Shown here piece by piece: positions 3,597 through 20,266 of a DNA stretch of 64,000 bases (positions within the stretch are counted from its first letter, which is position 1; each line of letters begins with the position of its first letter). The position numbers and the translations under genes were made by a program. Origin of the DNA: Candidatus Bathyarchaeota archaeon (lineage in GTDB: Archaea > Thermoproteota > Bathyarchaeia > Bathyarchaeales > DTEX01); contig JAGTQD010000001.1 in assembly GCA_018396405.1 (NCBI GenBank), forward strand, positions 5,549 to 69,548, written 5' to 3'. The notes under the pieces are model-generated. The model saw only the letters and a list, made by a program, of their open reading frames with translations, made no database searches and had not been told where the DNA came from.

Positions 3597-4268
3597 TTGG
3601 ATATTTACCCCCAATGTGCGAAGTGTAAAATAGTTTACTGCGTAGCTTCTCCAAGAGAAGAGATTAACGAAAACCTACTTCCAAGCTTCTGCCCAATGAG
3701 GAATGCGGAGCAGGCGATAAGATCCGCACAGGTTATGTATAATGATGAACGAGTAAAGAAGCTCTATCTGGTCTCATCAATAATAGAGAAAAAAGCCTAC
3801 GAGGTCGTTAGGGGAACATTAATGCCAGTATATCCAAGAATAAGGGAGATTATAGAATTCTGTAAGATGATTGACGCTAAAAAGTTAGGTGTAGCTTTCT
3901 GCACGGGACTTCACGATGAGGCAGCGAGAGTAACAACGGTTCTTGAGGAATCTGGGTTTACTGTGCTTTCGGTTAGATGTAAATGCGGGGCTATCGATAA
4001 GACAGATCTCTCTATACCACGCGAATATAAAATTAGAGACCCAAACAAGTATGAGGCAGCATGCAACCCCATAGCCCAAGCCCAGATACTGAATGAGGCT
4101 GGAACAGACCTAAATATAATTGTTGGCTTATGCGTTGGGCATGATATACTCTTCACAATGCATTCAAAGGCCCCGGTAACAACCCTAATCGTCAAGGACC
4201 GTCTTCTTGGACATAACCCTCTAATCGCCCTCTACAGCAACTACCACAAAAACATCATAAAACCATGA
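3597..4268 (+). CDS. Cys-rich metal-binding protein, DUF1847-like
   Basis: TTG start. Multiple conserved Cys (CAKCKIVYC, FCPM, CKCG, GLCVGHD). The overall pattern recalls DUF1847; this assignment is from memory only. Confidence 0.5.
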   Translation: MDIYPQCAKCKIVYCVASPREEINENLLPSFCPMRNAEQAIRSAQVMYNDERVKKLYLVSSIIEKKAYEVVRGTLMPVYPRIREIIEFCKMIDAKKLGVAFCTGLHDEAARVTTVLEESGFTVLSVRCKCGAIDKTDLSIPREYKIRDPNKYEAACNPIAQAQILNEAGTDLNIIVGLCVGHDILFTMHSKAPVTTLIVKDRLLGHNPLIALYSNYHKNIIKP

Positions 4269-4564: not shown

Positions 4565-5812
4565 TTAATGGCTTTCACTTTTACTTTTACAGTTCAGTGT
4601 CTCGGGAACTAGGCACAAAAGTATGATTACTAGAATTTCTACCAAGACAGGAACTACTATGATTAATGCCCCGAAGCCACAATCCCAAAGGATGCCTCCA
4701 GTAATGGTAAGCATCCTTGACACAGCAGTTATAACACCCTCTAATCCATATAGTTTGCCTGTACTTTTAGAGGGAACAACCTCCCACCACATGGTCAAGA
4801 GGGGAGTCATGGCTGCCCCTCCTATGCCCCCACCAACTATGCCCCCAATTCCCATCCCAAAAATACTGGCTAACATTAAGTATTCAGGTGCCGGGGCAAG
4901 AATTAACATAATTAATCCTATACAATAAAACGTGGTAAACAAGAAGAAAATCTTTTTTCTGCCGAATTTATCCGCAAGCTTGCCTGCCGGAACTTGCATA
5001 AGCAAACCCGATATGACTGACAGAGTTGATAATATGCCCAGCATCGTAGCAGTTGCACCTTTGACGTTAACAATCCATAGGGGAGCAAACGTTATCAGTA
5101 ACCCGTGGGAGCTATCCCGAAAAAGCCTTATTACTATCCAATGCAAAAGATATTTTTCGCTCTTAAAGAATCTTTGATACTCATAAAGTAACATGCTTTT
5201 TTTCTTAGGGTAAACTGTGTTTCTCGTGCCATTAGAAATTGAAATTTCATCCAAACCTTTATATAAAATAAGTAGGACTGCTAAGAGGATGGGAATAGAA
5301 ATGTAATATAGAGGGCGAATTCCGTGCATATTTATACCGCCATAGTAGGTAACAATGACAGATGCTATTAATGGGGCAAATATTGACATTATACCACAAA
5401 ATATCCGTGATAATCCTACGAGAGTGGCTCTTTTATGTGGCTCTGTAAAAGTTATAAAAACTACATCTGCAAGTGGTATTTGCCTAATTATTTGACCATA
5501 TAGAATAAATGCAGGTATGAGTAGGCGCCAATCGTTCGCCAAAGCAAAGATAACCATGGCAGTTATGTCACAGATTAGACCCAGAATCATCATTCTTTTT
5601 ACAGGTTTTCTCTCAATAGCTAAACCAATATATGGGGCGCTAATGAGCAGCACTAGCCCACTTATGAGCATTATTATCCCTATATCAGTACCACCCGCGC
5701 CTAAAGCTTGGGCGAAAAGCACATTATATTGAGCTAAAAGCTGCATAATAAACATATACAAAGATTGAGCAGCTAGCACGACCTTTATTCTTCTATCGAG
5801 ATTCTTAAACAC
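4565..5812 (-). CDS. MFS-type transporter
   Basis: About 12 hydrophobic segments over 415 aa, with a GRKK loop between predicted TM segments. Confidence 0.7.
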   Translation of the reverse strand: MFKNLDRRIKVVLAAQSLYMFIMQLLAQYNVLFAQALGAGGTDIGIIMLISGLVLLISAPYIGLAIERKPVKRMMILGLICDITAMVIFALANDWRLLIPAFILYGQIIRQIPLADVVFITFTEPHKRATLVGLSRIFCGIMSIFAPLIASVIVTYYGGINMHGIRPLYYISIPILLAVLLILYKGLDEISISNGTRNTVYPKKKSMLLYEYQRFFKSEKYLLHWIVIRLFRDSSHGLLITFAPLWIVNVKGATATMLGILSTLSVISGLLMQVPAGKLADKFGRKKIFFLFTTFYCIGLIMLILAPAPEYLMLASIFGMGIGGIVGGGIGGAAMTPLLTMWWEVVPSKSTGKLYGLEGVITAVSRMLTITGGILWDCGFGALIIVVPVLVEILVIILLCLVPETLNCKSKSESH

Positions 5813-6038
5813 TAAGCATCCTCTTCCATGGCAATTAAATAGTTTACTTTGATTATTACTTTAATTATTCAAAAGTGGTTAGACTTAAATAATTTTTATT
5901 TGACAAGGCTCATAGGAAAAAATTGAGTAAAAGGGATTATTTGTCATTAAAGTTAAGCCTAATAGCCTTTTTGTACCTTAACTCCTATTTGATTTTTAAA
6001 AAGCGTGAAGCTTCTTTAAATGGAACTAGATGACTTCT

Positions 6039-6791
6039 TTAACATATTTCTCCAAGGGAGTTATGGAAGAATCTTTTTATGACTCTCGCCACTGGAACTG
6101 ATATCATCAAGCCTATAATCATTTGTCCAATATTTATTGGGATTTCTGCTATAGCGATAGCTTCAATTCCGAAGAGTGGGTATATAAAATATGCCTCGTA
6201 AATGTAATATCCTAGAACCATGACGAGGCCGCCAGCTATTATGGAGAGAATTGTCCAGCCAGCCTCGGGTTGCGCTATGATGCCGATTGATATTATTAAG
6301 AGTATAATGAGGGCTCCGAGAGTCAACCAAAATGCTTGTGGGATATAGTGGACGAAAATAGCATGCCCTAAAGTCAATTCTATGTTTCCGCTATAATATG
6401 ATGAGCCTATAAAAGCTAGTAATGCTCCGACCAGAAGACCTAAAAGCGAAGTCAGTATTCTCCAGCTAGTCCTGCCGATCTTCGGACTGCGGCTACATAG
6501 AAAACCGATGATAAAACCTTCAGATGCCTTAATTAGGAGGGTTGCAGGAGCATAATAGTAGTAGCCTAATAGAATGTCGGCAAGCATCGAGCCAACTCCG
6601 CCAGCAAATGCGCCAATAAATGGTCCAAATAGTATGGCTGAGAGATAAACCATTGTCTCCCCCATATTAAAGAAGCCTCTTGACGCCGGGACATATACTG
6701 TGAAGAGCATTGTTGCCGCGCAAACTAACGCTGTCGTTACCGCTATGGAAGATACTACTTTAGATGTTTTGCTAACTCTCATCTTGCCCAC
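6039..6791 (-). CDS. ECF-transporter S-component-like membrane protein (substrate unknown)
   Basis: Polytopic, 250 aa, with Gly-rich helices (FGPFIGAFAGGVGSMLADILLG). There are no ECF A/T genes nearby. The start may be the ATG at 6782 rather than the GTG at 6791. Confidence 0.55.
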   Translation of the reverse strand: MGKMRVSKTSKVVSSIAVTTALVCAATMLFTVYVPASRGFFNMGETMVYLSAILFGPFIGAFAGGVGSMLADILLGYYYYAPATLLIKASEGFIIGFLCSRSPKIGRTSWRILTSLLGLLVGALLAFIGSSYYSGNIELTLGHAIFVHYIPQAFWLTLGALIILLIISIGIIAQPEAGWTILSIIAGGLVMVLGYYIYEAYFIYPLFGIEAIAIAEIPINIGQMIIGLMISVPVARVIKRFFHNSLGEIC

Positions 6792-6813
6792 TAGTATAGT
6801 TAAAACTATACTA
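6792..6813. promoter_or_regulatory. perfect 22-bp palindrome TAGTATAGTT-AA-AACTATACTA (candidate operator)
   Basis: Read directly from the sequence. It lies between a TATA-like box (6816-6828) and the start codon of the ECF-S gene. Confidence 0.6.
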
Positions 6814-6815
6814 TC

Positions 6816-6828
6816 TTTTTTATAAAAC
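6816..6828 (-). promoter_or_regulatory. TATA-box-like element (minus strand TTTTATAAAAAAG)
   Basis: AT-rich TATA consensus about 35-45 nt upstream of the candidate start codons of the 6039-6791 gene. Confidence 0.5.
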
Positions 6829-6846
6829 TTTCGTCGCTGCCTATTT

Positions 6847-8250
6847 TTATCCCATAAGAATCTTGACTTCCTCTATGGCTTCAAGTATCCTCCTGCCTTT
6901 CTGAGTTATTGTAAAGTATTTTCGGCCATCTCTCACCTGAACGGATATTAAGCCCTTATTTTTTAGCTCATTCAGGTGCTGGTATATGGCGGCTTTTGTC
7001 ATGGTTTTGCCAATCTCTTTCCATATTTCATACCCATAGGTTTCCCTCTCAGCTATTATACGCAATATCCTCTCTTTCGTGCTCAAATCGGCTTCCACAA
7101 GAGCCATTTTGCGCCTCTTTGACATGGCTTGTAGGACATCTGTTGCCTTAAGACCGCTTCCAGTTACTAGGCAGACTATTCTCTCATCACCGCCGATAAC
7201 TGACTGATCTATGAGCCTCTTTAATGCAGCTATAGTTCCAGAGCTTGCTGGTTCAGCAAATAAGCCTTCCATCTTCGCTATTTCCTGCTCTGCCTCAAGT
7301 ATTTCCTGGTCAGAGACGGAGACTGCCAGCCCATTTGACTCTCTAATGGCCTTTAGGGCAAGATTTTCTCTTAGTGGGTTGGCCATGAGGATGCTTGTAG
7401 CCCTAGTCATTGGATTCTTAATCGGCTCCCTCCTACCTAAGTATGCGTTTACTATGGGTGGGCAGCCGATCGATTGAACGCCGATTAATCTTGGTGTGCC
7501 GTTAATTATTCCAAGGTCATTGAGTTCACGGAAGCCCTTCCAAATAGAGTATATTGTTCCTCCGCTTCCCATAGGCACGATTATAACGTCTGGCACCCCA
7601 ATTTGCTCGGCTATCTCAAAGGCTATCGTCTTCTGCGCCTCAATAGTAAGCGGGTTTATGGCTGATGTGGCCTGGTACCAGCCGGTCTCCTCAGAGATGC
7701 TTATCGCCTCTTTTATCGAGTCATCAACGGTCTCTCCATGCTCCTCAATGAGGGCATCATAGATTATCATCTGGGCCAGTTTTCCTATGTCAACGTTCTT
7801 CGGTATTATTATATGACAGGATAGCCCATGCTTTGCACAGTATGCTGCTAGGGCAGCTCCCATGTTTCCATTTGATGCGCAGACCGCCGTCGTATAGCCG
7901 AGGTCAATCATGTTTGAGACTATTAGTGCAGCGGCTCTGTCTCTAAAGGAGTTTGTTGGGTTTCGCGTCTCATCTTTCAAATATAGATGTGAGACTTTTA
8001 GGTGTCTAGCTAGGCGCTCAGCTTTATATAGCGGTGTTCCACCCTCCCGTAATGATACACAATTTTTTACCCTTGGAAGAAGACTCATATACCTCCAAAA
8101 GCCGAATTCTCCAGTAAAACTAACCTCTCCAAGAGACTCATAGTCGATTTTATACTCAAGTGTCCCAACTTCGCCGCAACTCCTACACCTATATTCCTGG
8201 CCTTTAACCTCAAATTCCTCGTGACATTTAGTGCATACCAGAGTTGACAT
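6847..8250 (-). CDS. threonine-synthase-fold protein lacking the PLP lysine, fused to a C-terminal PadR-like winged-helix domain
   Basis: Collinear with the adjacent thrC, but has NPTNSFRDRA where thrC has NPTGSFKDRG. It carries an extra C-terminal ~80 aa with a wHTH pattern. Confidence 0.8.
   Translation of the reverse strand: MSTLVCTKCHEEFEVKGQEYRCRSCGEVGTLEYKIDYESLGEVSFTGEFGFWRYMSLLPRVKNCVSLREGGTPLYKAERLARHLKVSHLYLKDETRNPTNSFRDRAAALIVSNMIDLGYTTAVCASNGNMGAALAAYCAKHGLSCHIIIPKNVDIGKLAQMIIYDALIEEHGETVDDSIKEAISISEETGWYQATSAINPLTIEAQKTIAFEIAEQIGVPDVIIVPMGSGGTIYSIWKGFRELNDLGIINGTPRLIGVQSIGCPPIVNAYLGRREPIKNPMTRATSILMANPLRENLALKAIRESNGLAVSVSDQEILEAEQEIAKMEGLFAEPASSGTIAALKRLIDQSVIGGDERIVCLVTGSGLKATDVLQAMSKRRKMALVEADLSTKERILRIIAERETYGYEIWKEIGKTMTKAAIYQHLNELKNKGLISVQVRDGRKYFTITQKGRRILEAIEEVKILMG
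6850..7083 (-). other. PadR/MarR-like winged-helix domain of the ThrC-like fusion
   Basis: ERILRIIAERETYGYEIWKEIGKTMTKAAIYQHLNELKNKGLISVQVRDGRKYFTITQKGRRILEAIE. Confidence 0.6.
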
Positions 8251-8347
8251 TTTCCTCCTCGAATACTATAATTTTTAGAAGCTTTTAAATAATCCTTTTA
8301 GCCAGATAAGGATGCGGCATGAACTGGTATAATGGTGCCTGCGAAAA

Positions 8348-9580
8348 ATGGGCTGCTGTGAACCTTTTCGTCTTGTATGCATAAATTGTGGATCAAGATA
8401 TTTGCCAAGCGAAATTATCTATATGTGCCGTAGATGCGGGGATCTGCTCTCGGTGGAATATAATGTAGATCTAATGAGACCCGAGATTGCCTCAAATTGG
8501 GTGGGAAGGGCACTATCGGTTTGGCGTTATGCTGAGCTACTGCCAATAGTTGACAGAAATAAAATCGTGAGTTTAGGCGAAGGGGGAACATCCCTAAATA
8601 AATGTGATAGACTTGGGGGGTATCTCGGGCTAAAAGAGGTCTACGTTAAGAATGAGGGTGAGAACCCGACTGGCAGCTTTAAGGACAGGGGTATGACCGT
8701 GGGCGTGACAAAAGCCCTTGAGATGAGCATGAAGCGCGTTGCATGCGCCTCGACTGGCAATACATCAGCCTCCTTAGCAGCCTATGCGGCCAAGGCTGGC
8801 TTAGAATGCATCGTTCTTATACCCTCCGGTAAAGTGGCCCTTGGAAAACTTGTTCAGGCAATAATTTATGGTGCAAGGGTTATCCAAGTTAAAGGAAACT
8901 TTGATGACGCTTTAAGAATAGTTGAGGAGCTATGCATGACTCAGCCAATCTATCTGCTCAATTCAATAAACCCGTATAGGCTTGAGGGGCAGAAAACAAT
9001 AGCCTTCGAGATATGGGACCAGCTTGGCGGCAAGGTTCCAGATAAAGTTATTGTCCCTGTGGGGAATGCTGGAAATATAAGTGCCATATGGAAGGGGTTC
9101 AGGGAACTATATTTAATGGGATTAATCAATAGGCTGCCCAGAATGATTGGAATACAGGCTGAGGGGGCTGCGCCGATAGCTAACATGATAAAGATGGGGT
9201 CGAGTGAGATCAAGTTTGTGGAAAAGCCAGAAACAATCGCAACCGCCATAAGGATTGGCTCGCCAGTAAATTGGAAGAAGGCTGTTAAGGCTATTAGGGA
9301 GTCAGGCGGGCTGGCTGAAACCGTATCTGATGAAGAAATATTGTCTGCCCAAAAGCTCCTAGCTAGGCTTGAGGGAATATTTGTTGAGCCCGCGAGCGCC
9401 GCGTCGATAGCTGGATTAATTAAGCTATCGAAAAATGGGCTTGTCGAGAAGGATGAACTTGTTGTCTGCGTAGCTACTGGACATGGGCTGAAGGATCCGG
9501 ATATAATTTTAAGGCAATTCCCAAAGCCGATCGAGATAGAGGTTGATGTAAACACATTAATAAAAATCTTGTCGGTCTAA
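8348..9580 (+). CDS. thrC: threonine synthase
   Basis: N-terminal CxxC..CxxC ribbon. The PLP lysine motif NPTGSFKDRG is intact, as are the phosphate loop VGNAGN and TGHGLKD. Confidence 0.9.
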   Translation: MGCCEPFRLVCINCGSRYLPSEIIYMCRRCGDLLSVEYNVDLMRPEIASNWVGRALSVWRYAELLPIVDRNKIVSLGEGGTSLNKCDRLGGYLGLKEVYVKNEGENPTGSFKDRGMTVGVTKALEMSMKRVACASTGNTSASLAAYAAKAGLECIVLIPSGKVALGKLVQAIIYGARVIQVKGNFDDALRIVEELCMTQPIYLLNSINPYRLEGQKTIAFEIWDQLGGKVPDKVIVPVGNAGNISAIWKGFRELYLMGLINRLPRMIGIQAEGAAPIANMIKMGSSEIKFVEKPETIATAIRIGSPVNWKKAVKAIRESGGLAETVSDEEILSAQKLLARLEGIFVEPASAASIAGLIKLSKNGLVEKDELVVCVATGHGLKDPDIILRQFPKPIEIEVDVNTLIKILSV

Positions 9581-9591
9581 ATGGATATATC

Positions 9592-10254
9592 CTAGGACAA
9601 ATTGACGCTCTTTAACAGTTTATTTATTTTCACTATAAATCTTGGATACGAGACTTTATATCCTTCCGCTATGGTTATGCGCCAAAGATCCTTCTTTGAC
9701 AGCCCCTGATACTTTTTAATCAATTTCACTAAAAATTCATCTGGAAGAGCAGGCGGTCTACCAACATGCTTTCCCCTCTGCCGGGCTCTTTCCATTCCAG
9801 CCTTAATCTTATCCTTTAAGCTCTCAACATACTTTTGATACCCGTAGGCTAAGGCCCTAACAACGATATCAAATATCAGTCTTCTAAGGGCTTCGTCTGG
9901 TATGGCTGCAAGAAACTGGAGCCACTCTTCCTGATAGGCTACTACTTGTATACCATAAGCCCTTAAATCCTCAAGAGCCTTAACGAGGTAATCATATTTA
10001 CGCGCTATCCTATCTAAGCTGAAGACCAGCAATGCCGCACCATGCTTCCTCGCTGTTTCAACAGCCTTAACCCAACCCTCCCTTCTCTCAGGCATAATCT
10101 CATAGCCGCTAACGCCCACGTCTACAAACTCTCCGAGAACATCAATTCCTCTACCCTTAGCATACTCCCTCAGAATGAGCAGCTGATTCTCAACAGTTCG
10201 ATCCTCAGTAGATATCCTCGCGTAGATAACTGCCTTAAGCATATTATGACACAC
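9592..10254 (-). CDS. small serine recombinase (resolvase/invertase family)
   Basis: N-terminal AVIYARISTEDR, carrying the catalytic Ser motif. C-terminal GRPPALPDEF..LSKKDLWRI resembles a resolvase HTH. The likely start is the ATG at 10242. Confidence 0.85.
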   Translation of the reverse strand: MCHNMLKAVIYARISTEDRTVENQLLILREYAKGRGIDVLGEFVDVGVSGYEIMPERREGWVKAVETARKHGAALLVFSLDRIARKYDYLVKALEDLRAYGIQVVAYQEEWLQFLAAIPDEALRRLIFDIVVRALAYGYQKYVESLKDKIKAGMERARQRGKHVGRPPALPDEFLVKLIKKYQGLSKKDLWRITIAEGYKVSYPRFIVKINKLLKSVNLS

Positions 10255-12879: not shown

Positions 12880-15105
12880 TCACGCCTTGTATACCTCGCA
12901 TAGTACCGCTTTATATGTGGGGAAGCCTGAGATTGGGTCGAAGACTCTAGGAATAAGCAGATTGACGTGAGCCTCTGGGATCATAGCCCAGCCGTGTGAG
13001 ACATCAACAACCCCTGGGGGTACAAGGTATGTGATGTGCGCATGCACCCTTATTTTACCATGAGCATTCTCAACCATAACGAGATCCCCCTCCCTAATGC
13101 CCCTCTTTTCAGCATCCTCTGGGTTTATGTTAACTACTGGGTAAGGCATGAGATCCCTAAGCCACGAGAGCTCCCTCCACTTACTATGCGTGTACATAGG
13201 CACCCTAGATCCGGTGATCAATATAAGAGGATATCTCTGAGCTAAATCGGGCTTACTTCTCGGCGACTCCTCTGGCTCTTTATAGACGGGGAGTGGATCA
13301 TAACCATATTTTTCTAAGATTGTCGACCAAATTTCAACTTTGCCAGTTGGTGTTGGGAATCCTGGTTTTCCATCCTTTCGCAATAACCCTTTCTCATACT
13401 TTTTGTATTCTTCAGGGCCCGGCGGCGGTATAACTTTGCCATCTGGTATTGGGATTTCATCTATTGTTACGCCTGCCTTTTGTAGAATAAAGTCAAGTCC
13501 TTTTTTAGTATCTCCTCCCCAAAACTCCTCCACATAACCTAATCGAACAGCTAAGTCAAATACTATTTGCCAATCAGTTTTCGCTTCTAGGTAGGGCTTT
13601 ACAACGGGTTTTCTTACATAAATTTTCCTTCCAAACCAGATAAATGGTTCAAATCTTTCATAGTTGGTTGCAGCAGGCAATACTATATCAACATAATTAT
13701 GTGTCCAAGGCCTGTAGAAATAATCAACTGCCACCACAAACTCCATGTTTTTTAAGGCCTCTTGATATTCTTGGAACTGAGGCCATATCGTTACGTTTGC
13801 GCCGAACAAGATAGCCATTTTAATCTTTCCTTCTCTCACATACTCTGGGAGAAGATTCACTTGTATCTGTTCATGCACAATCTCTGCCCAAACTGGAAAG
13901 TAGTCTTTATCAACCCTCTTATTTTTCATTTCAATCTTCTTCTTTTCCATGATAAAATCTGGGTCACCCATATCGTGTGATCTGAAGGGTAGAGGATACG
14001 TGGGTACAGTAACGCCGCCTGGGATATCAAAGTTTCCAGTTAATGCTACCAATGTTAATATTGCTCGGACAGTTTGCACCGCATTAGTTGTATGCGTTAG
14101 CGTTGAAACTCCGGCCATCAAAGTGCCCGGCTTATTAGTGGCAAAGAGTTCGGCAGCAGCAACTATTTTATCAGATGGAACCCATGTTATTTCTTCTACT
14201 TTTTCCGGTGTAAATCCCTTCACATACTCTTCTAGAGCTTCAAAACCGTAGGTCCAGTTCTCCACAAATTCTTTATCATAAAGTTTTCTTTCGATTATCA
14301 CATTCATCATTCCTAAAGCCAGAGCGTCATCGGTTCCTGGACGGGGTTGAAGATGAAGGTCCGCTAGCTTATCAGCTACTGGAGTCCTACGAGTATCTAT
14401 AACTATAAACATTGCTCCTTTCTCCTTAGCGTCAAAAAGTTTCGGCATATCGAAGGGTCTTGACCAAGCTGGATTTGTCCCCCATATCAGAACGGTCTTC
14501 GTATCTCTAGTTGGCGGATTGCCAAGCACAATTAGACCAAACATCAATTGCGATGCAAGGGCTGCAGCCCTGAAGCATGTTGAGCTCTCTGTCCCAAAGT
14601 TGGGGGAGCCAAAAACGGTCGCCAGACGTGAAACTGCTGGTCTCATCTCCTTTGGGTCTCCACAATAAAATAGAACAGCTTCCGGTCCATACTTTTCTCT
14701 AATTTCTTTCATCTTTGAAACTATTGTATTATAAGCTTCTTCCCAGCTTATCCTGACGAAACGGGGGTCAGGCAAACTTTTTGGGGTAGTTCTTTTTAAT
14801 GGGTAGCCAAGCCTTTGTGGATGATACTGCCTTTGTAGAGTTGCGAAGCCCTTAGAGCATAGGGGCGAATTTGGATAATTTTCCCAGCTATCTAACCTAA
14901 TTATTCGGCCATCCTTTACATAGACCTTTATTCCGCAGTATGGAACCTGGTTACAAGCATCACAAAAAGTATAGCCAATAGACTCTTTAGCACTTTCTAT
15001 TATATCTGAGTGGGCAGATTTAATATGATCTCCTAGAACCATTTTGGTTACGAATTCCTGATCGCAGTATGGGCATAAAAACTTCACGCTCATATCTAGA
15101 TCCAT
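12880..15105 (-). CDS. molybdopterin (Mo/W-bisPGD) oxidoreductase catalytic subunit with an N-terminal C2H2 zinc finger
   Basis: FCDACNQVPYCG...CSKG is an N-terminal FeS motif. The protein has the length and blocks of the DMSOR family and a candidate Cys ligand (ESSTCFRAA). There is no twin-arginine signal. Confidence 0.85.
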   Translation of the reverse strand: MDLDMSVKFLCPYCDQEFVTKMVLGDHIKSAHSDIIESAKESIGYTFCDACNQVPYCGIKVYVKDGRIIRLDSWENYPNSPLCSKGFATLQRQYHPQRLGYPLKRTTPKSLPDPRFVRISWEEAYNTIVSKMKEIREKYGPEAVLFYCGDPKEMRPAVSRLATVFGSPNFGTESSTCFRAAALASQLMFGLIVLGNPPTRDTKTVLIWGTNPAWSRPFDMPKLFDAKEKGAMFIVIDTRRTPVADKLADLHLQPRPGTDDALALGMMNVIIERKLYDKEFVENWTYGFEALEEYVKGFTPEKVEEITWVPSDKIVAAAELFATNKPGTLMAGVSTLTHTTNAVQTVRAILTLVALTGNFDIPGGVTVPTYPLPFRSHDMGDPDFIMEKKKIEMKNKRVDKDYFPVWAEIVHEQIQVNLLPEYVREGKIKMAILFGANVTIWPQFQEYQEALKNMEFVVAVDYFYRPWTHNYVDIVLPAATNYERFEPFIWFGRKIYVRKPVVKPYLEAKTDWQIVFDLAVRLGYVEEFWGGDTKKGLDFILQKAGVTIDEIPIPDGKVIPPPGPEEYKKYEKGLLRKDGKPGFPTPTGKVEIWSTILEKYGYDPLPVYKEPEESPRSKPDLAQRYPLILITGSRVPMYTHSKWRELSWLRDLMPYPVVNINPEDAEKRGIREGDLVMVENAHGKIRVHAHITYLVPPGVVDVSHGWAMIPEAHVNLLIPRVFDPISGFPTYKAVLCEVYKA
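15010..15081 (-). other. C2H2 zinc-finger motif within the oxidoreductase N-terminus
   Basis: FLCPYCDQEFVTKMVLGDHIKSAH matches F-x-C-x2-C-x3-F-x5-L-x2-H-x4-H exactly. I verified it codon by codon. Confidence 0.7.
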
Positions 15106-15360: not shown

Positions 15361-16134
15361 ATGCATGATTTCCTCCCTGGAACTTCGAAGGAGAGAGTCC
15401 TGATGGTTTATTTAACAGCTGGGGATCCATGCGTGAACGGGAACATTATAAATATTTTATCTGAGAGTGGGGTTGATGCCTTTGAGTTTGGAATCCCGAT
15501 GGCTAAACCGAAATATGATGGTCTAGTTATCAAGGCGAGCTATAGGAGGGCTTTAGAGAATGGAGCAACCCTCGAGAAAATCTTCCAGTTTATGAGGGAT
15601 CTTAATTTAGACCACAAGATAATCTTCACATATTTTGACTATGCCAAGAATATTGGCATAGAAAAATTTATGAGTTATGTTCAGAATGCTGGTGCCGAGG
15701 GCGTTCTTTTCCCAGATCTTCTAATAGACTATTTAGATGAACTAGACAAATATATTGAGATCTGTAAGCAATGCTCTCTTGAGCCAATATTTTTTATTAC
15801 AAGCTCCTTCCCGCACAATTTAATCATTAAGCTTGCCCGGCTGAAACCAGCGTTCATTTATCTTGGGCTGATGGCCTCTACAGGAACACTTCTACCCATA
15901 ACTATTAGTAGGAATATTAGGATTATAAGGGGTCTCATAGGTGATACCCCCCTACTTGTGGGCTTCGCAATAAGTAAGCCGTCGCAGATAATGGATTGTG
16001 TAAGGGCTGGTGCAGATGGAGTTATTATTGGGAGCGCTATAATCAGATTAATAAGCCAAGAAGAAAGAGGGTCAGCCTTCCGAGAAAATTTGAGGAATTA
16101 CATCATTAGCCTAAAAAGAGCGTTGGAGGCATAG
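15361..16134 (+). CDS. trpA: tryptophan synthase alpha chain
   Basis: YLTAGDP and FEFGIPMAKPKYDG (catalytic Glu and Asp positions retained), plus GFAIS. 257 aa. Confidence 0.85.
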   Translation: MHDFLPGTSKERVLMVYLTAGDPCVNGNIINILSESGVDAFEFGIPMAKPKYDGLVIKASYRRALENGATLEKIFQFMRDLNLDHKIIFTYFDYAKNIGIEKFMSYVQNAGAEGVLFPDLLIDYLDELDKYIEICKQCSLEPIFFITSSFPHNLIIKLARLKPAFIYLGLMASTGTLLPITISRNIRIIRGLIGDTPLLVGFAISKPSQIMDCVRAGADGVIIGSAIIRLISQEERGSAFRENLRNYIISLKRALEA

Positions 16135-16136
16135 TT

Positions 16137-17408
16137 ATGCACGATCCACCGAACTACTGGTATAATATTGTCCCAGATTTACCGAGACCACTACCCCCTC
16201 CGAGGGATCCGGAAGACGATTATATCTTCTCCAGAATCGAGATCCTGCCAAAGCTTTTTCCCTCAGAATTGCTAGACCAAGAATTTACCGCGGAAAGATA
16301 CGTCCAGATACCCGCCGAGGTCTTAGATTCTTATAGGAGGATAGGGCGGCCAACACCCTTGGCGAGGGCTGTGAGACTTGAAAGGTTCCTTGATACGCCA
16401 GCGAAAATTTACTTTAAGCGTGAGGATTTGAGCCCGGCTGGGAGCCATAAAGTTAACACTGCACTAGCCCAAGCATATTACGCAAAAAAGGAGAATATTC
16501 AAATGCTTACAACGGAGACCAGTGCCGGGCAATGGGGTTCAGCCCTAGCTTACGCGTGTGCCATGTTTAATATAAAATGCCTAGTTTTTATGACGAGGAG
16601 CAGCTATCTACAGAAGCCTTATAGGAAGACTCTAATGAAACTTTATGGCGCCGAAGTCCTTCCAAGCCCAAGTGATTGCACCGATGTCGGCAGAAATCTC
16701 CTGAAGGAGAGGCCTGAACACCCAGGCTCCCTTGGAATAGCCATCTCCGAAGCTGTTGAAACATGTATGAAGAATGAGGGTGTGAAATATGCTATTGGAA
16801 GCGTAATGAATTTTGTTTTACTACACCAGACGGTTATAGGTTTAGAGACGATGAAACAGCTTGAGGAAATAGGAGAAAAGCCGGATATAATGGTTGGCTG
16901 CGTTGGCGGCGGAAGCAACTTTGCAGGCTTCATCTTCCCATTTGTTGGGAAAAGGCTTAGGGATGGAGAGTTTAAGGATACGAGGTTTATTGGTGTTGAA
17001 TCGAAAGCCTCCCCAAAGATGACTGAAGGAAAATATGTCTATGAGCATGGAGATACAGCCGGGTATCTTCCAATGTTAAAAATGTATACTGTTGGGAGGA
17101 ATTATGTGCCCCCGCCGATACATGCCGCTGGATTGAGATATCATGCTGTGGCTCCAACCTTATCGTTATTGATTAGGGAGGGTTTGATTGAGACGGCAGC
17201 CTACACGCAGGAGGAAGTCTTAGATGCAGCGAGAACTTTTGCGAGGGTTGAGGGGATAATCCCCGCCCCCGAAACATCCCACGCAATCAAACAGGTCATA
17301 ATCGAAGCACAACAATGTAGGAGAAGAAATCTTCAGAAGACTATAGTCTTCTGCTTCAGCGGGCATGGGCTTTTAGACCTATCTATATTTGAAGAACATA
17401 CTGAATAG
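16137..17408 (+). CDS. trpB2: TrpB2-type tryptophan synthase beta chain
   Basis: The N-terminal extension YWYNIVPDLPRPLPPP is typical of TrpB2. Also has LSPAGSHKVN (PLP Lys) and GGGSNFAG. Confidence 0.9.
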   Translation: MHDPPNYWYNIVPDLPRPLPPPRDPEDDYIFSRIEILPKLFPSELLDQEFTAERYVQIPAEVLDSYRRIGRPTPLARAVRLERFLDTPAKIYFKREDLSPAGSHKVNTALAQAYYAKKENIQMLTTETSAGQWGSALAYACAMFNIKCLVFMTRSSYLQKPYRKTLMKLYGAEVLPSPSDCTDVGRNLLKERPEHPGSLGIAISEAVETCMKNEGVKYAIGSVMNFVLLHQTVIGLETMKQLEEIGEKPDIMVGCVGGGSNFAGFIFPFVGKRLRDGEFKDTRFIGVESKASPKMTEGKYVYEHGDTAGYLPMLKMYTVGRNYVPPPIHAAGLRYHAVAPTLSLLIREGLIETAAYTQEEVLDAARTFARVEGIIPAPETSHAIKQVIIEAQQCRRRNLQKTIVFCFSGHGLLDLSIFEEHTE

Positions 17409-17556
17409 TGATGTAATAACTGCAATGAGGATGCGGATCTTACAGTAACTTAACCCTAAATATAATCATCTATAGGCAACTTCTGCCATTTAAAAATATT
17501 TTTTATTCAGGTATAGAAAAGTAAATATCATTGGGACTGAACATTTTAGCCTAGAG

Positions 17557-18876
17557 TTGTATTTTAATGGGGGAAAAGGTGTGCCGACACAAATGAAGGC
17601 TGCATTAGAGGGATACGAGACTGAGGAGATGCGCTTAGTCGCTGAGGAGGAGGGAGAGTCGCCGCAGAGTATACGTATGCGTGTTGCTGAGGGCTCGGTT
17701 ATAATAACTCGGAATATTGTGAGGGAGAATGTTCACCCCATCGGTATTGGTAAAGGGTTGAGGATAAAGGTTAATGCAAACATTGGCACGAGCCCAGACC
17801 TGTGTGACATAAACCTCGAGATGGAGAAGGCTTCTGTAGCGGTTAAATATGGTGCCGATACAATAATGGATCTAAGCACTGGGGGAAACTTAGACGAGAT
17901 TCGAAGGGCAATTTTAAAAACCGTCAAAGTTCCTGTCGGAACTGTTCCGATCTATCAGGCCGCGATAGAGGCTGCTAGAAATAAGGGGTCAATCGTTTAC
18001 ATGAGTGAGGACGATATCTTTAACGTTATAGAGAGACATGCTAAAGACGGAGTAGACTTCATGACAGTCCACTGCGGGGTCACAAAAGATATAGTTGAGA
18101 AACTGGCTAAACAGCCCCGCTTAATGGGAATAGTCAGTAGGGGTGGAGTATTCTTAGCGGCTTGGATGCTCCATAATAGCGAGGAAAACCCGCTATACAA
18201 GAACTATGATTACCTTTTGGAGATAGCCGCAAAATATGATTTCGCCCTAAGCCTTGGCGATGGGCTGAGACCAGGATGTATATTTGACTCAACAGATTAC
18301 TTCCAGATTCAAGAGCTATTAACTATTGGAAGGCTCGTTGAGAGAGCGAGACAAGCTGGTGTGCAGGCGATGGTTGAGGGGCCGGGGCACCTACCATTAA
18401 ATCATGTTGAGGCGAACGTTAAGTTAGCCAAGGCTATCTGCAAGGAAGCACCGTTCTATGTGCTCGGCCCAGTTGTAACTGAGATAGCCCCAGGATACGA
18501 TCATATTGTAGCGGCTATTGGGGGAGCCCTAGCCGGCTTAGCTGGCGCAGACTTTCTATGCTATGTCACACCATCTGAGCACCTTGGTCTTCCCACAGTG
18601 GAGGATGTTAGGGATGGCGTTATAGCAGCCAGAATAGCTGCCCATGCAGCCGACATAGTTAGGCTTGGCCCTAAGGCAGCGGCAAAGGATCTTGAAATGG
18701 CTAAAGCTAGAGCTAGTCTCAATTGGAAGAAGCAGATAGAGAACGCTATAGATCCTAAGAGGGCGATGGAGATACGTGGGAGAGTGAAGCTAACAAGTCC
18801 GGAGACGTGCTCAATGTGCTCAGAATACTGCGCAATAAAGTTGTTGAAGGATGCTCTGAGGACTTCATGCTTTTAA
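17557..18876 (+). CDS. thiC: phosphomethylpyrimidine synthase ThiC
   Basis: Contains [15 protein letters not shown] and a C-terminal CSMCSEYC cluster motif. The true start is probably the GTG at 17581 or the ATG at 17593. Confidence 0.95.
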
Positions 18877-18898
18877 TCTGGCTCCTGGAGAGAGATCT

Positions 18899-20266
18899 AT
18901 GCTTAAAACTCGCGGTGATAGAGCTCCAGTCGCTATCACGATTGCTGGAAGCGACTCTGGCGGCGGGGCGGGGATACAGGCTGACTTAAAGACTTTTGCA
19001 GCCCTCGGAGTTCACGGCGCAACCGCGATAACATGCGTTACAGCCCAGAACACTTATTCAGTGACAGCTATAGAGTGCCTTAAGCCCGAGATTGTTAGAG
19101 AACAGATTAGACAGGTAGCTGAGGATATGGGGATAGATGCGGGGAAAACTGGGATGCTTTATACGGCGGAGATAATCAGAGCTGTTGCTGAAGAGACCTC
19201 AAAATATAGTTTCCCACTAGTTGTCGACCCAGTCATGGTCGCCAAGTCGGGTGCGCCGCTTCTGAAACCTGAGGCTGAGGAGGCACTAGAGAAGAATCTT
19301 CTTCCAGTGGCCAAAGTGGTTACACCAAACAAATTTGAGGCTGAGAGACTTGCCAAGATGGAGATAAGAGATATTGAGGATGCTAAGAGGGCGGCCGAGA
19401 GAATACATGCCCTCGGCCCGGAGGCTGTCGTTGTTAAGGGCGGGCACCTTGAGTCTGCTGAAGAGTCCGTTGACATACTATATTATAGGGACGAATACAA
19501 GATCTTCAGTGCTCCGAGAATATATACAAAAAACACTCATGGCACTGGCTGCAGCTTCTCAGCAGCAATAGCAGCCCACCTTGCTAAGGGTGAAGATATA
19601 GTATCCGCGGTTAAGCTTGCAAAGGAGTTTATTACAGAGGCAATAAAGTTTGGCTTAAATATTGGTAGGGGGGCTGGCCCAGTCAACCCGATGGCTCACC
19701 TCTATAGAGAGGCTGAAAGATACCGTGTTCTAAGAAATGTTATGAAGGCAAAGAAGATACTTGAGTCCGCGCCCAATATTGCTAGGCTCGTGCCAGAGGT
19801 TGGCATGAACATTGCTATGGCCCTCCCATATGCTGATAGCGCTGACGATATAGCCGCTATACCCGGAAGGCTAGTAAGAGTCTTTGACGGAGTTAAGGCT
19901 GTTTCAGAGCCAGAGTTCGGCGCATCAAGCCATTTGGCTAGATACCTAATTGAGATCATGAAATACGATGTCAGAAAGAGGGCAGCAATAAACTTAAGGT
20001 ACTCGGAGGATGTTCTCAGAGTCCTTAGGGAAAAGGGATTAAGGATATCGTTTTATAATAGGGCTGAGGAGCCGGAGGAGATAAAGCGTATCGAAGGCAT
20101 GACGATTCCGTGGGGTGTTAGGCAGGCGATAGGCAGGGTTGGGGGGGCACCAGACGTAATCTACCATATGGGCGACGTTGGCAAGGAGCCAATGATAGTC
20201 GTATTCGGCGAAGACGCGATTTCACTCGCCAAGCTCGCCGCCACGATAGCCAATAAAATCGGCTAA
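18899..20266 (+). CDS. thiDN: bifunctional HMP/HMP-P kinase ThiD fused to thiamine-phosphate synthase ThiN
   Basis: The N-terminal half is ThiD-like ([26 protein letters not shown]). The C-terminal ~190 aa is a ThiN-like domain, as in other archaea. Confidence 0.85.

Follow-up and report, generated by a model that had tools for sequence, protein, structure and literature searches.

The 64,000-nucleotide stretch of DNA analysed here (the window) comes from Candidatus Bathyarchaeota archaeon (assembly GCA_018396405.1, contig JAGTQD010000001.1, positions 5,549 to 69,548 of the forward strand) and contains, at 6847–8250 on the reverse strand (stop codon included), a gene for a threonine synthase (TS)-fold pseudoenzyme joined to a winged helix-turn-helix (wHTH), referred to below as the fusion gene. 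It was delineated from the open reading frame (ORF) list, Pfam PALP and PadR matches, an AlphaFold2 (AF2) model and a Foldseek search. Downstream on the same strand lies the gene of an energy-coupling factor (ECF)-type S-component membrane protein (ECF-S; 6039–6791, 250 residues), and on the other side, in divergent orientation, a canonical threonine synthase gene, thrC (8348–9580, forward strand). The fusion protein is, on balance, probably a one-component transcription regulator, in which a catalytically dead TS fold, a flexible linker and a PadR-type wHTH combine to repress a vitamin B6-type importer locally in response to pyridoxal 5′-phosphate (PLP) or a PLP-like ligand.

Four parts make up the 467-residue product: an N-terminal zinc ribbon, the TS fold, a linker predicted to be disordered and, at the C-terminus, a winged helix of PadR type. 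It is 42% identical to the product of the adjacent thrC over 408 aligned columns (E = 3e-92), and the collinearity of the two proteins, which a first-pass annotation made from the sequence alone had described, was recovered with all of the shared blocks that it listed. The four cysteines of the ribbon (C6, C9, C22 and C25; 8176–8235, reverse strand), which gives weak Pfam zinc-ribbon matches, are all invariant across 42 homologs, and ThrC next door has the same N-terminal ribbon. Residues 65–364 (7159–8058, reverse strand) form a fold-type II PLP-enzyme domain of the threonine synthase type, presumed to be the ligand-sensing domain, which is matched by Pfam PALP (E = 1.5e-78) and, in sequence searches of the PDB, by threonine synthases (e.g. 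2ZSJ, E = 1.8e-67).

The AF2 model, built on 42 homologs and with a mean predicted local distance difference test (pLDDT) score of 83.7, consists of the TS fold, a disordered linker at residues 365–389 (7084–7158, reverse strand; pLDDT below 50) that separates the sensor from the DNA-binding domain, and a helix-helix-helix-wing-helix arrangement at 391–466 (helices 391–401, 406–413 and 419–431, strands 435–440 and 443–448, and helix 450–466, with pLDDT mostly 70–88). The best Foldseek matches of the model are threonine synthases (6NMX, E = 1.8e-30, target template modelling score 0.86). The C-terminal domain (residues 390–467; 6850–7083, reverse strand), earlier described as PadR/MarR-like, scores above the Pfam PadR (PF03551) cut-off at residues 395–457 (E = 1.3e-11, 44.8 bits against 27), and PadR-family structures rank first when the PDB is searched with a profile of the wHTH family (5DYM, E = 7e-12); GntR was not among the Pfam families listed for the protein at E up to 0.1. 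Both domains and both folds were thus obtained from the profile searches and structure prediction that had been suggested as checks.

Fold-type II PLP enzymes require a Schiff-base lysine. At this position thrC has AAG (8681–8683; Lys112, within NPTGSFKDRG), whereas the fusion gene has AGA (the complement of 7942–7944; Arg103, within NPTNSFRDRA), a difference noticed in the first pass and read directly from the codons. The earlier idea turned on there being no lysine codon (AAA or AAG) at 7942–7944; besides the AGA found there, arginine occupies the position in all of the 120 closest homologs (59–96% identity), 112 of which have the exact string NPTNSFRDR, so Arg103 is a trait of the family and not a sequencing error. 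These homologs are from Bathyarchaeia, contain both PALP and PadR domains and are without exception named "threonine synthase" in the source databases.

A wider survey, in which 1.84 billion cluster representatives were searched exhaustively and the 150 best 50%-identity representatives were scored, relates the loss of the lysine to the presence of the wHTH. Among the 73 wHTH-bearing representatives, 2 have lysine and 71 another residue (Leu 18, Arg 15, Ile 15, Val 6, Thr 5, Met 4, Phe 3, others 5), whereas all 67 full-length representatives without a wHTH retain it; three fragments of the fusion family without a wHTH also have a residue other than lysine, and none has lysine. In species-level genomes the 34 fusion genes that were scored have arginine in 17, isoleucine in 6, lysine in 6, leucine in 3 and methionine in 2, and the 46 scored canonical genes have lysine in 45, the single arginine belonging to a gene that a contig end cuts short. 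The expectation that lysine loss and wHTH extension go together therefore stands for most of the family but not for all of it, since a lysine-retaining wHTH clade (NPTNSFKDR; 6 of the 34 loci) is found in Promethearchaeia/Lokiarchaeia, Hermodarchaeota and some Bathyarchaeia. Orthologs of this kind, had they been active threonine synthases, were to count against a sensor; the proteins do contain PALP and PadR domains together with the lysine, but they lack the TS substrate motifs and their genes adjoin an ECF-S gene, and they resemble regulators that bind PLP more than they do enzymes. A separate set of TS homologs of about 615 residues, found outside the window (P0191, P0221, P0237, P0251 and P0270), also retains the lysine; P0191 has a C-terminal LeuA allosteric domain (LeuA_dimer, PF08502) and the other four look alike, so that an enzyme under allosteric control is suggested here, and not a protein that binds DNA.

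The glycine-rich loop GSGGT (residues 228–232; 7555–7569, reverse strand) is the counterpart of the ThrC PLP-phosphate loop GNAGN in the pairwise alignment, as had been pointed out earlier, and its G228 and G230 are 95–100% conserved in all wHTH clades. Together with N97, P98, T99, S101, F102, D104, R105, G128, N129, E333, T363, G366, L367 and K368 they form a set that is 70–100% conserved in every wHTH clade and 86–100% conserved in the arginine, lysine and hydrophobic clades, against a mean column identity of 37% for the fusion family. Asn129 and Thr363 presumably correspond to the residues of TS structures that contact O3′ and N1 of PLP. The STGNT motif of ThrC has become SNGNM, and the NPxRxEGQKT motif of ThrC and of solved threonine synthases has become NPLTIEAQKT, with Thr202 in place of the arginine; the threonine of the former motif and the arginine of the latter are presumably the positions that bind the phosphate of O-phosphohomoserine in Thermus and other TS structures. 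Catalysis and the substrate site would thus appear to have been lost and the cofactor cradle kept, as would suit a receptor that binds PLP or a molecule shaped like it.

The fusion protein is very probably not a threonine synthase. That it is a second functional enzyme with a C-terminal appendage, as the databases label it, finds some encouragement in its score over the TIGR00260 thrC cut-off (212 against 167 bits) and near that of NF004170 (413.5 against 421), in the name borne by all of its homologs and in a fold that matches threonine synthases, but such an enzyme would have to work with arginine, or in other clades Leu, Ile, Val or Met, at the Schiff-base position and with SNGNM and NPLT in its substrate motifs, beside a canonical thrC and with a bona fide PadR wHTH attached. 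We consider it extremely improbable, and the same observations bear out the proposal of an enzyme-derived sensor coupled to a wHTH.

The label itself can be traced. The NCBIfam model NF004170 (PRK05638.1; a "threonine synthase" equivalog of 442 positions) aligns with residues 5–459 of the fusion protein, across the wHTH, and matches all 76 of a diverse, lysine-variable set of fusion proteins including their wHTH (best E = 5.6e-241); because of this span and these matches, the equivalog is in fact a model of the regulator family. As NF004170 matches the family and the fusion protein of the window also passes the TIGR00260 cut-off, automated annotation can be expected to go on naming these regulators enzymes. 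Through this systematic error hundreds of archaeal proteins that have a DNA-binding domain and no catalytic lysine, and the model too, are mislabelled as threonine synthase, and metabolic reconstructions of uncultured archaea may count false thrC genes.

The partner gene of the fusion gene is the ECF-S gene, whose product matches Pfam ECF-ribofla_trS (PF07155) with E = 1.4e-29 (103.7 bits, cut-off 26.7) and whose assignment is also supported by a PDB relative (see below) and by adjacency. A scan of species-representative genomes yielded 80 loci, and 36 fusion loci were compared with 47 loci that have canonical thrC only. The fusion gene was found in Bathyarchaeia, Jordarchaeia, Promethearchaeia, Hermodarchaeota, Thorarchaeota, Nitrososphaerota, Methanomethylicota, a Thermococci metagenome-assembled genome and Desulfurococcales. 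In 26 of the 36 loci, spread over Bathyarchaeia, Asgard archaea, Nitrososphaerota and Desulfurococcales, it has an ECF-S homolog no more than 200 bp away; at a limit of 3 kb the count is 27, and none of the 47 canonical loci has one nearby (Fisher p ~2e-14, without phylogenetic correction). The two genes are in tandem in the arginine clade, convergent in the lysine clade of Asgard archaea and divergent in the isoleucine/leucine clade, so their adjacency has survived rearrangement. Of the two targets suggested in the first pass, the downstream ECF-S gene is therefore the one supported, both by this pairing and by the palindrome that precedes ECF-S genes.

Some fusion genes have other neighbours. 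In one Nitrososphaerota genome, the gene at L062:4353–6062 has methionine in place of the lysine, and its divergent neighbour is not an ECF-S gene but an AA_permease_2 amino-acid permease gene, which may be a case of target switching. The Thermococci genes, which have arginine, follow fttA directly (L207:6001–7326, in Thermococcus chitonophagus CP015193.1, and L032:5986–7323), and neither has an ECF-S neighbour. T. chitonophagus (WP_068578498.1) is the one cultured host of a fusion gene that was identified.

The DNA between the fusion gene and the ECF-S gene contains a perfect 22-bp palindrome at 6792–6813, TAGTATAGTT-nn-AACTATACTA, which is the predicted operator on the grounds of its uniqueness and its recurrence at orthologous loci. 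In the window it reads TAGTATAGTT-aa-AACTATACTA, with arms of 10 + 10 bp, and it occurs once in the 64 kb even when three mismatches are allowed (0.02 expected by chance). It is located directly downstream of a candidate archaeal core promoter of the ECF-S gene (6819–6833, reverse strand), read from the sequence as a TFB-recognition element (BRE)-like CGAAAG followed by TATA-like TTTATAAA, and 0–10 nt upstream of the possible ECF-S starts, GTG at 6791 and ATG at 6782, the latter of which is probably the true one. As the centre of an archaeal TATA box usually lies ~26 nt from the start site, ECF-S transcription would be expected to begin inside the proximal operator arm.

The same palindrome is present upstream of the ECF-S genes in every arginine-clade locus, and a position-weight scan of all loci placed it solely upstream of ECF-S genes. 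Both ECF-S paralogs of L003–L005 have an operator of their own; at L006 the site precedes the ECF-S gene and the regulator gene is separated from it by another gene; at L010 it precedes an ECF-S gene that is 2.9 kb from the regulator and on the other strand. The palindrome thus stays upstream of ECF-S even at distances of 1.4–2.9 kb from the regulator, and by following displaced and second-copy ECF-S genes it shows itself to be tied to the transporter gene and not to be the terminator of the regulator. Its sequence changes with the regulator clade: the arginine-clade version is TAGTATAGTTnnAACTATACTA and the lysine/Asgard-clade version TATATAAGTTnnAACTTATATA, the lysine clade of Asgard archaea having a 22-bp dyad, TATATAAGTT-nn-AACTTATATA, which is often duplicated in tandem, while the divergent intergenic regions of the isoleucine/leucine clade contain the dyad ATATATAGG-n6-CTTATATAT.

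It is likely that the fusion protein regulates the ECF-S gene through the 6792–6813 palindrome, which the first pass had named as a region to be probed for binding and which is now a strong candidate for the operator; the regulon is predicted to be a local one, made up of the ECF-S gene and any genes transcribed together with it. That the palindrome instead forms the hairpin of a terminator, serves as a TATA element in both directions or is bound by another factor might be suspected from its position 33 nt past the regulator stop codon, its AT-richness and the TATA-like strings inside it. Yet it remains with ECF-S genes far from the regulator or as a second copy (L003, L006 and L010), divergent arrangements place it upstream of both genes, where a terminator is impossible, its non-TATA positions (AGTT..AACT) are conserved, its sequence varies with the regulator clade, and Rfam has no match in 5800–8600 at E up to 1. 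We accordingly regard a role other than operator of this protein as very unlikely.

Public metagenomes were scanned for exact matches to TAGTWWAGTTNNAACTWWACTA, and 120 loci were returned. In 75 of them an ECF-S gene starts just downstream of the site, in about 10 more the contig end cuts right beside the regulator gene, and two (L098 and L156) precede a divergent, N-terminally extended ECF-S variant. The remainder are mostly more AT-rich variants, and those that were sampled have bacterial or phage-like surroundings (ArsR-like regulators, an integrase, surface proteins); as candidates for further members of the regulon they were judged to be chance matches. At L101:11246–11267, L168:1472–1493 and L205:1347–1368, TAGTTTAGTT-nn-AACTAAACTA stands just upstream of small wHTH genes (~115–125 residues), whose products are ArsR-like by eye and are encoded on apparently bacterial metagenome contigs (the wHTH hidden Markov model matched those of L168 and L205); the site probably serves autoregulation, is unrelated and fits the degenerate pattern by chance.

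The divergent neighbour thrC had been proposed as the other likely target. It scores 372 bits against TIGR00260 (cut-off 167) and retains Lys112, but neither the operator nor a half-site is present in the intergenic region at 8251–8347 or upstream of 15 orthologous regulator genes (half-site and position-weight scans), and adjacency of thrC to the fusion gene is confined to one Bathyarchaeia subclade, which includes the window (L001–L010); thrC was on these grounds rejected as a target. The linked suggestion that the protein senses threonine or O-phosphohomoserine, with control over thrC and, by way of the membrane protein, perhaps over amino-acid uptake, fares little better. It has in its favour the divergent thrC of this subclade, a neighbourhood at L006 that also includes homoserine dehydrogenase, ACT-domain and ilvD genes, and the descent of the sensor from a threonine-making enzyme. 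However, besides the missing operator, most fusion loci have no adjacent thrC whereas an adjacent ECF-S gene is found across phyla, vitamins and other micronutrients are the typical cargo of S-components, and the presumed phosphate-binding arginine of NPxRxEGQKT is replaced by Thr202. The neighbouring gene is the sole evidence for these two ligands. We judge a threonine or O-phosphohomoserine sensor to be unlikely. Immediately downstream of thrC, a serine recombinase gene (9592–10254, reverse strand; Resolvase domain, 220 residues) was found, with a 216-residue counterpart in the same place in L001; no obvious mobile element was noticed around it in the window.

The third ligand class put forward in the first pass, a B6 vitamer, fits best, with the residues that would hold PLP retained and with the relationships of the transporter. 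Across the PDB, the only relative of the ECF-S protein is chain S of 4HZU, found with E = 2e-12 from the single sequence and 3.8e-14 with a 36-member family profile, and no S-component for riboflavin, folate, thiamine, biotin or pantothenate was matched in the PDB at E up to 10. 4HZU_S is HmpT/PdxU2 of Lactobacillus brevis, with which pyridoxamine co-purifies (PMC4860826), and PdxU and PdxU2/HmpT, both of PF07155/COG4720, are among only three known prokaryotic B6 transporters (PMC9997740). Of the conserved HmpT pocket residues Glu41, His84, Gln87, Tyr120, Asn140 and Gln143 (PMC4860826), Glu41, Tyr120, Asn140 and Gln143 are identical in the ECF-S protein, His84 is replaced by Lys and Gln87 by Glu (HMMER alignment, indexed by hand), and the matching positions are in the invariant list of the archaeal ECF-S family alignment. 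The relationship to HmpT/PdxU2, the conserved PLP cradle and the existence of a lysine-retaining clade make PLP or another B6 vitamer the most economical ligand, and quite possibly the actual one, although we hold this with a confidence that falls short of even.

In the mechanism that we propose, the TS domain would dimerise, as threonine synthases do, and so set two wHTHs on the 22-bp palindrome. Because the palindrome separates the TATA-like box from the ECF-S start, a bound dimer would be expected to block the polymerase, and the protein would act as a repressor. The former active site, without the Schiff-base lysine and the O-phosphohomoserine-binding residues, would most likely bind PLP or a close vitamer non-covalently, and, since the transporter resembles the pyridoxamine-binding HmpT/PdxU2, B6-replete cells would then shut off B6 uptake; such feedback repression appears to be the most economical logic.

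Several observations weigh against this reading. The locus counts are not phylogenetically independent, and 9 of the 36 fusion loci lack a nearby ECF-S gene; some of these are contig ends, and others, including Thermococcus, have housekeeping neighbours (GatE, FttA, RpiA, topoisomerase I and GINS, without a common theme). Binding of the fusion protein to the palindrome is deduced from their co-occurrence only, and the conserved scaffold residues could have been kept for folding rather than for ligand binding. On the transporter side, two of the six HmpT pocket residues differ, as noted above, PF07155 also includes riboflavin transporters, and a window-wide Pfam survey of the ORFs detected no ECF A/T module or pdx genes; nor, across all fetched loci, was a ThiD/PdxK-type (pyridoxal) kinase matched near the module.

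The genes that accompany ECF-S elsewhere add to these difficulties. A HypE/ThiL-like gene of the AIR-synthase family follows or flanks the ECF-S gene in ~59 related Bathyarchaeia loci, directly downstream and on the same strand in 37 of them with gaps of 7–139 bp (e.g. L131:4585–5598, L012:8266–9300 and L014:4432–5439); its product contains PF00586 and PF02769, is under every NCBIfam equivalog cut-off and may be a third component of the module. An Amidohydro_2 (PF04909) gene is found by ECF-S in 12 loci, directly downstream in 7, and follows or overlaps it, for example, at L003:9998–10744, L099:6085–6813 and L172:2723–3451. These neighbours imply that the imported compound is processed, which simple B6 uptake does not predict and which leaves room for another PLP-shaped substrate, such as hydroxymethylpyrimidine. 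Both genes are absent from the window, where a major facilitator superfamily (MFS) transporter gene follows ECF-S; it occupies 4565–5812 (reverse strand), between ECF-S and a DUF1847 gene (3597–4268), and in L001, whose regulator is 96% identical, ECF-S is followed directly by the DUF1847 gene, an insertion/deletion difference of 1.3–1.8 kb.

The fusion protein could, then, be a local regulator of ECF-S whose ligand and cargo are not B6 but, for instance, hydroxymethylpyrimidine phosphate, riboflavin/FMN or a salvage intermediate processed by the HypE/ThiL-like protein and the amidohydrolase. HmpT was first predicted to be a hydroxymethylpyrimidine carrier (PMC4860826), the phosphate of that compound resembles pyridoxamine 5′-phosphate, PF07155 is named for riboflavin carriers, the PurM-superfamily and Amidohydro_2 genes adjoin ECF-S at the loci just described, and loss of the lysine removes the need for an aldehyde on the ligand. 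Against this, HmpT/PdxU2 is the sole solved S-component that can be detected, even with the family profile and at E up to 10; the NCBIfam RibU model gives 18.8 against a cut-off of 99; the lysine-retaining wHTH clade speaks for an ancestral ligand that, like PLP, made a Schiff base; and Asn129 and Thr363, the presumed O3′ and N1 contacts, are retained. A cargo other than B6 is in our estimation rather unlikely, and B6 remains the preferred assignment.

By analogy, the family can be described as an archaeal fold-type II counterpart of PdxR, resembling the bacterial MocR/PdxR/GabR regulators in function without being a member of their family. In both, a one-component regulator has a PLP-enzyme fold as the sensor (here a presumed one) of a wHTH, and repeat-type operators, predicted ones here, lie beside the regulated genes. 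The fusion sensor, however, is of fold type II (PALP) and not of the aminotransferase-like fold type I, its wHTH is PadR-type and C-terminal instead of GntR-type and N-terminal, and it is archaeal whereas MocR/PdxR are bacterial; characterised MocR regulators keep the PLP lysine, which most fusion proteins lack. PdxR senses PLP, and its regulons include the PF07155 gene pdxU (PMC5320631); PF07155 is also the family of the predicted target here.

Compared with ThrC (TIGR00260, NF004170/PRK05638), the fusion protein has the same fold and zinc ribbon, the sequence identity given above and most PLP-scaffold residues in common, but no Schiff-base lysine, replaced substrate-phosphate residues and the additional linker and wHTH. 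It resembles PadR-family regulators in its wHTH, in its palindromic predicted operator and in the predicted local regulation of an adjacent gene, whereas classical PadR proteins are 100–200 residues long, have C-terminal helices of their own for dimerisation and are bound by effectors either at the wHTH or where the two subunits meet; in the fusion protein the wHTH is appended to a 385-residue enzyme-fold domain that presumably provides dimerisation and ligand sensing. Archaea possess other enzyme-derived regulators of vitamin synthesis and uptake genes, ThiR (a ThiN-like domain with an HTH) and RbkR (riboflavin kinase with a wHTH), which are alike in design only, as a vitamin-pathway enzyme fold joined to a DNA-binding domain; the enzyme fold and the vitamin differ. 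The ECF-S protein shares PF07155 with HmpT/PdxU2 and PdxU, HmpT being its only solved relative with four of six pocket residues in common, but it is ~80 residues longer, with an insertion between helices, it has the two substitutions described above, and no ECF A/T module was detected nearby.

Full-text searching of the available literature library found no published description of a TS–PadR wHTH fusion family: a survey of archaeal fusion proteins mentions only a cysH-thrC fusion (PMC11237513), and a survey of B6 metabolism and its pathways, which contains no mention of a TS–wHTH fusion, refers to PdxR-type factors as "the few known regulators" and names only bacterial ones (PMC9997740). More tentatively than for the ligand itself, we suggest that loss of the lysine has turned the TS fold into a non-covalent PLP receptor, and that the family may be an undescribed, phylum-spanning archaeal class of B6-sensing transcription factors (Bathyarchaeia, Asgard archaea, Nitrososphaerota, Thermococci and others). 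If true, this would be the first known archaeal B6 regulator and the first transcription factor with a fold-type II PLP fold, the lysine-retaining clade of Asgard archaea and Bathyarchaeia would preserve a covalent-binding intermediate stage, and a large number of archaeal ECF S-components that have no annotation would be given a role in B6 uptake. Prokaryotic B6 transporters are poorly known, and the module proposes both a transporter and its regulator for Archaea. With lysine, arginine and hydrophobic variants at one position and the same partner gene, the family also forms a natural series for the evolution of an enzyme into a receptor, and with a regulator, a 22-bp predicted operator, a target gene and a candidate ligand class it offers what is rare for uncultured Archaea, a regulatory module specified in all its parts.

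Elsewhere in the window, trpA, trpB (a second PALP protein, 423 residues), thiC and a thiD-thiN fusion stand in a row at 15361–20266 (forward strand), 7–12 kb from the locus; no operator-like site is associated with this row, which is ordinary biosynthetic content without a link to the regulator locus. A molybdopterin oxidoreductase gene at 12880–15105 (reverse strand) is a single ORF of 741 residues, whereas its counterpart at L001:1166–3380 is called as two genes (108 and 631 residues), a split that could be due to a frameshift, a selenocysteine/stop codon or an assembly difference.

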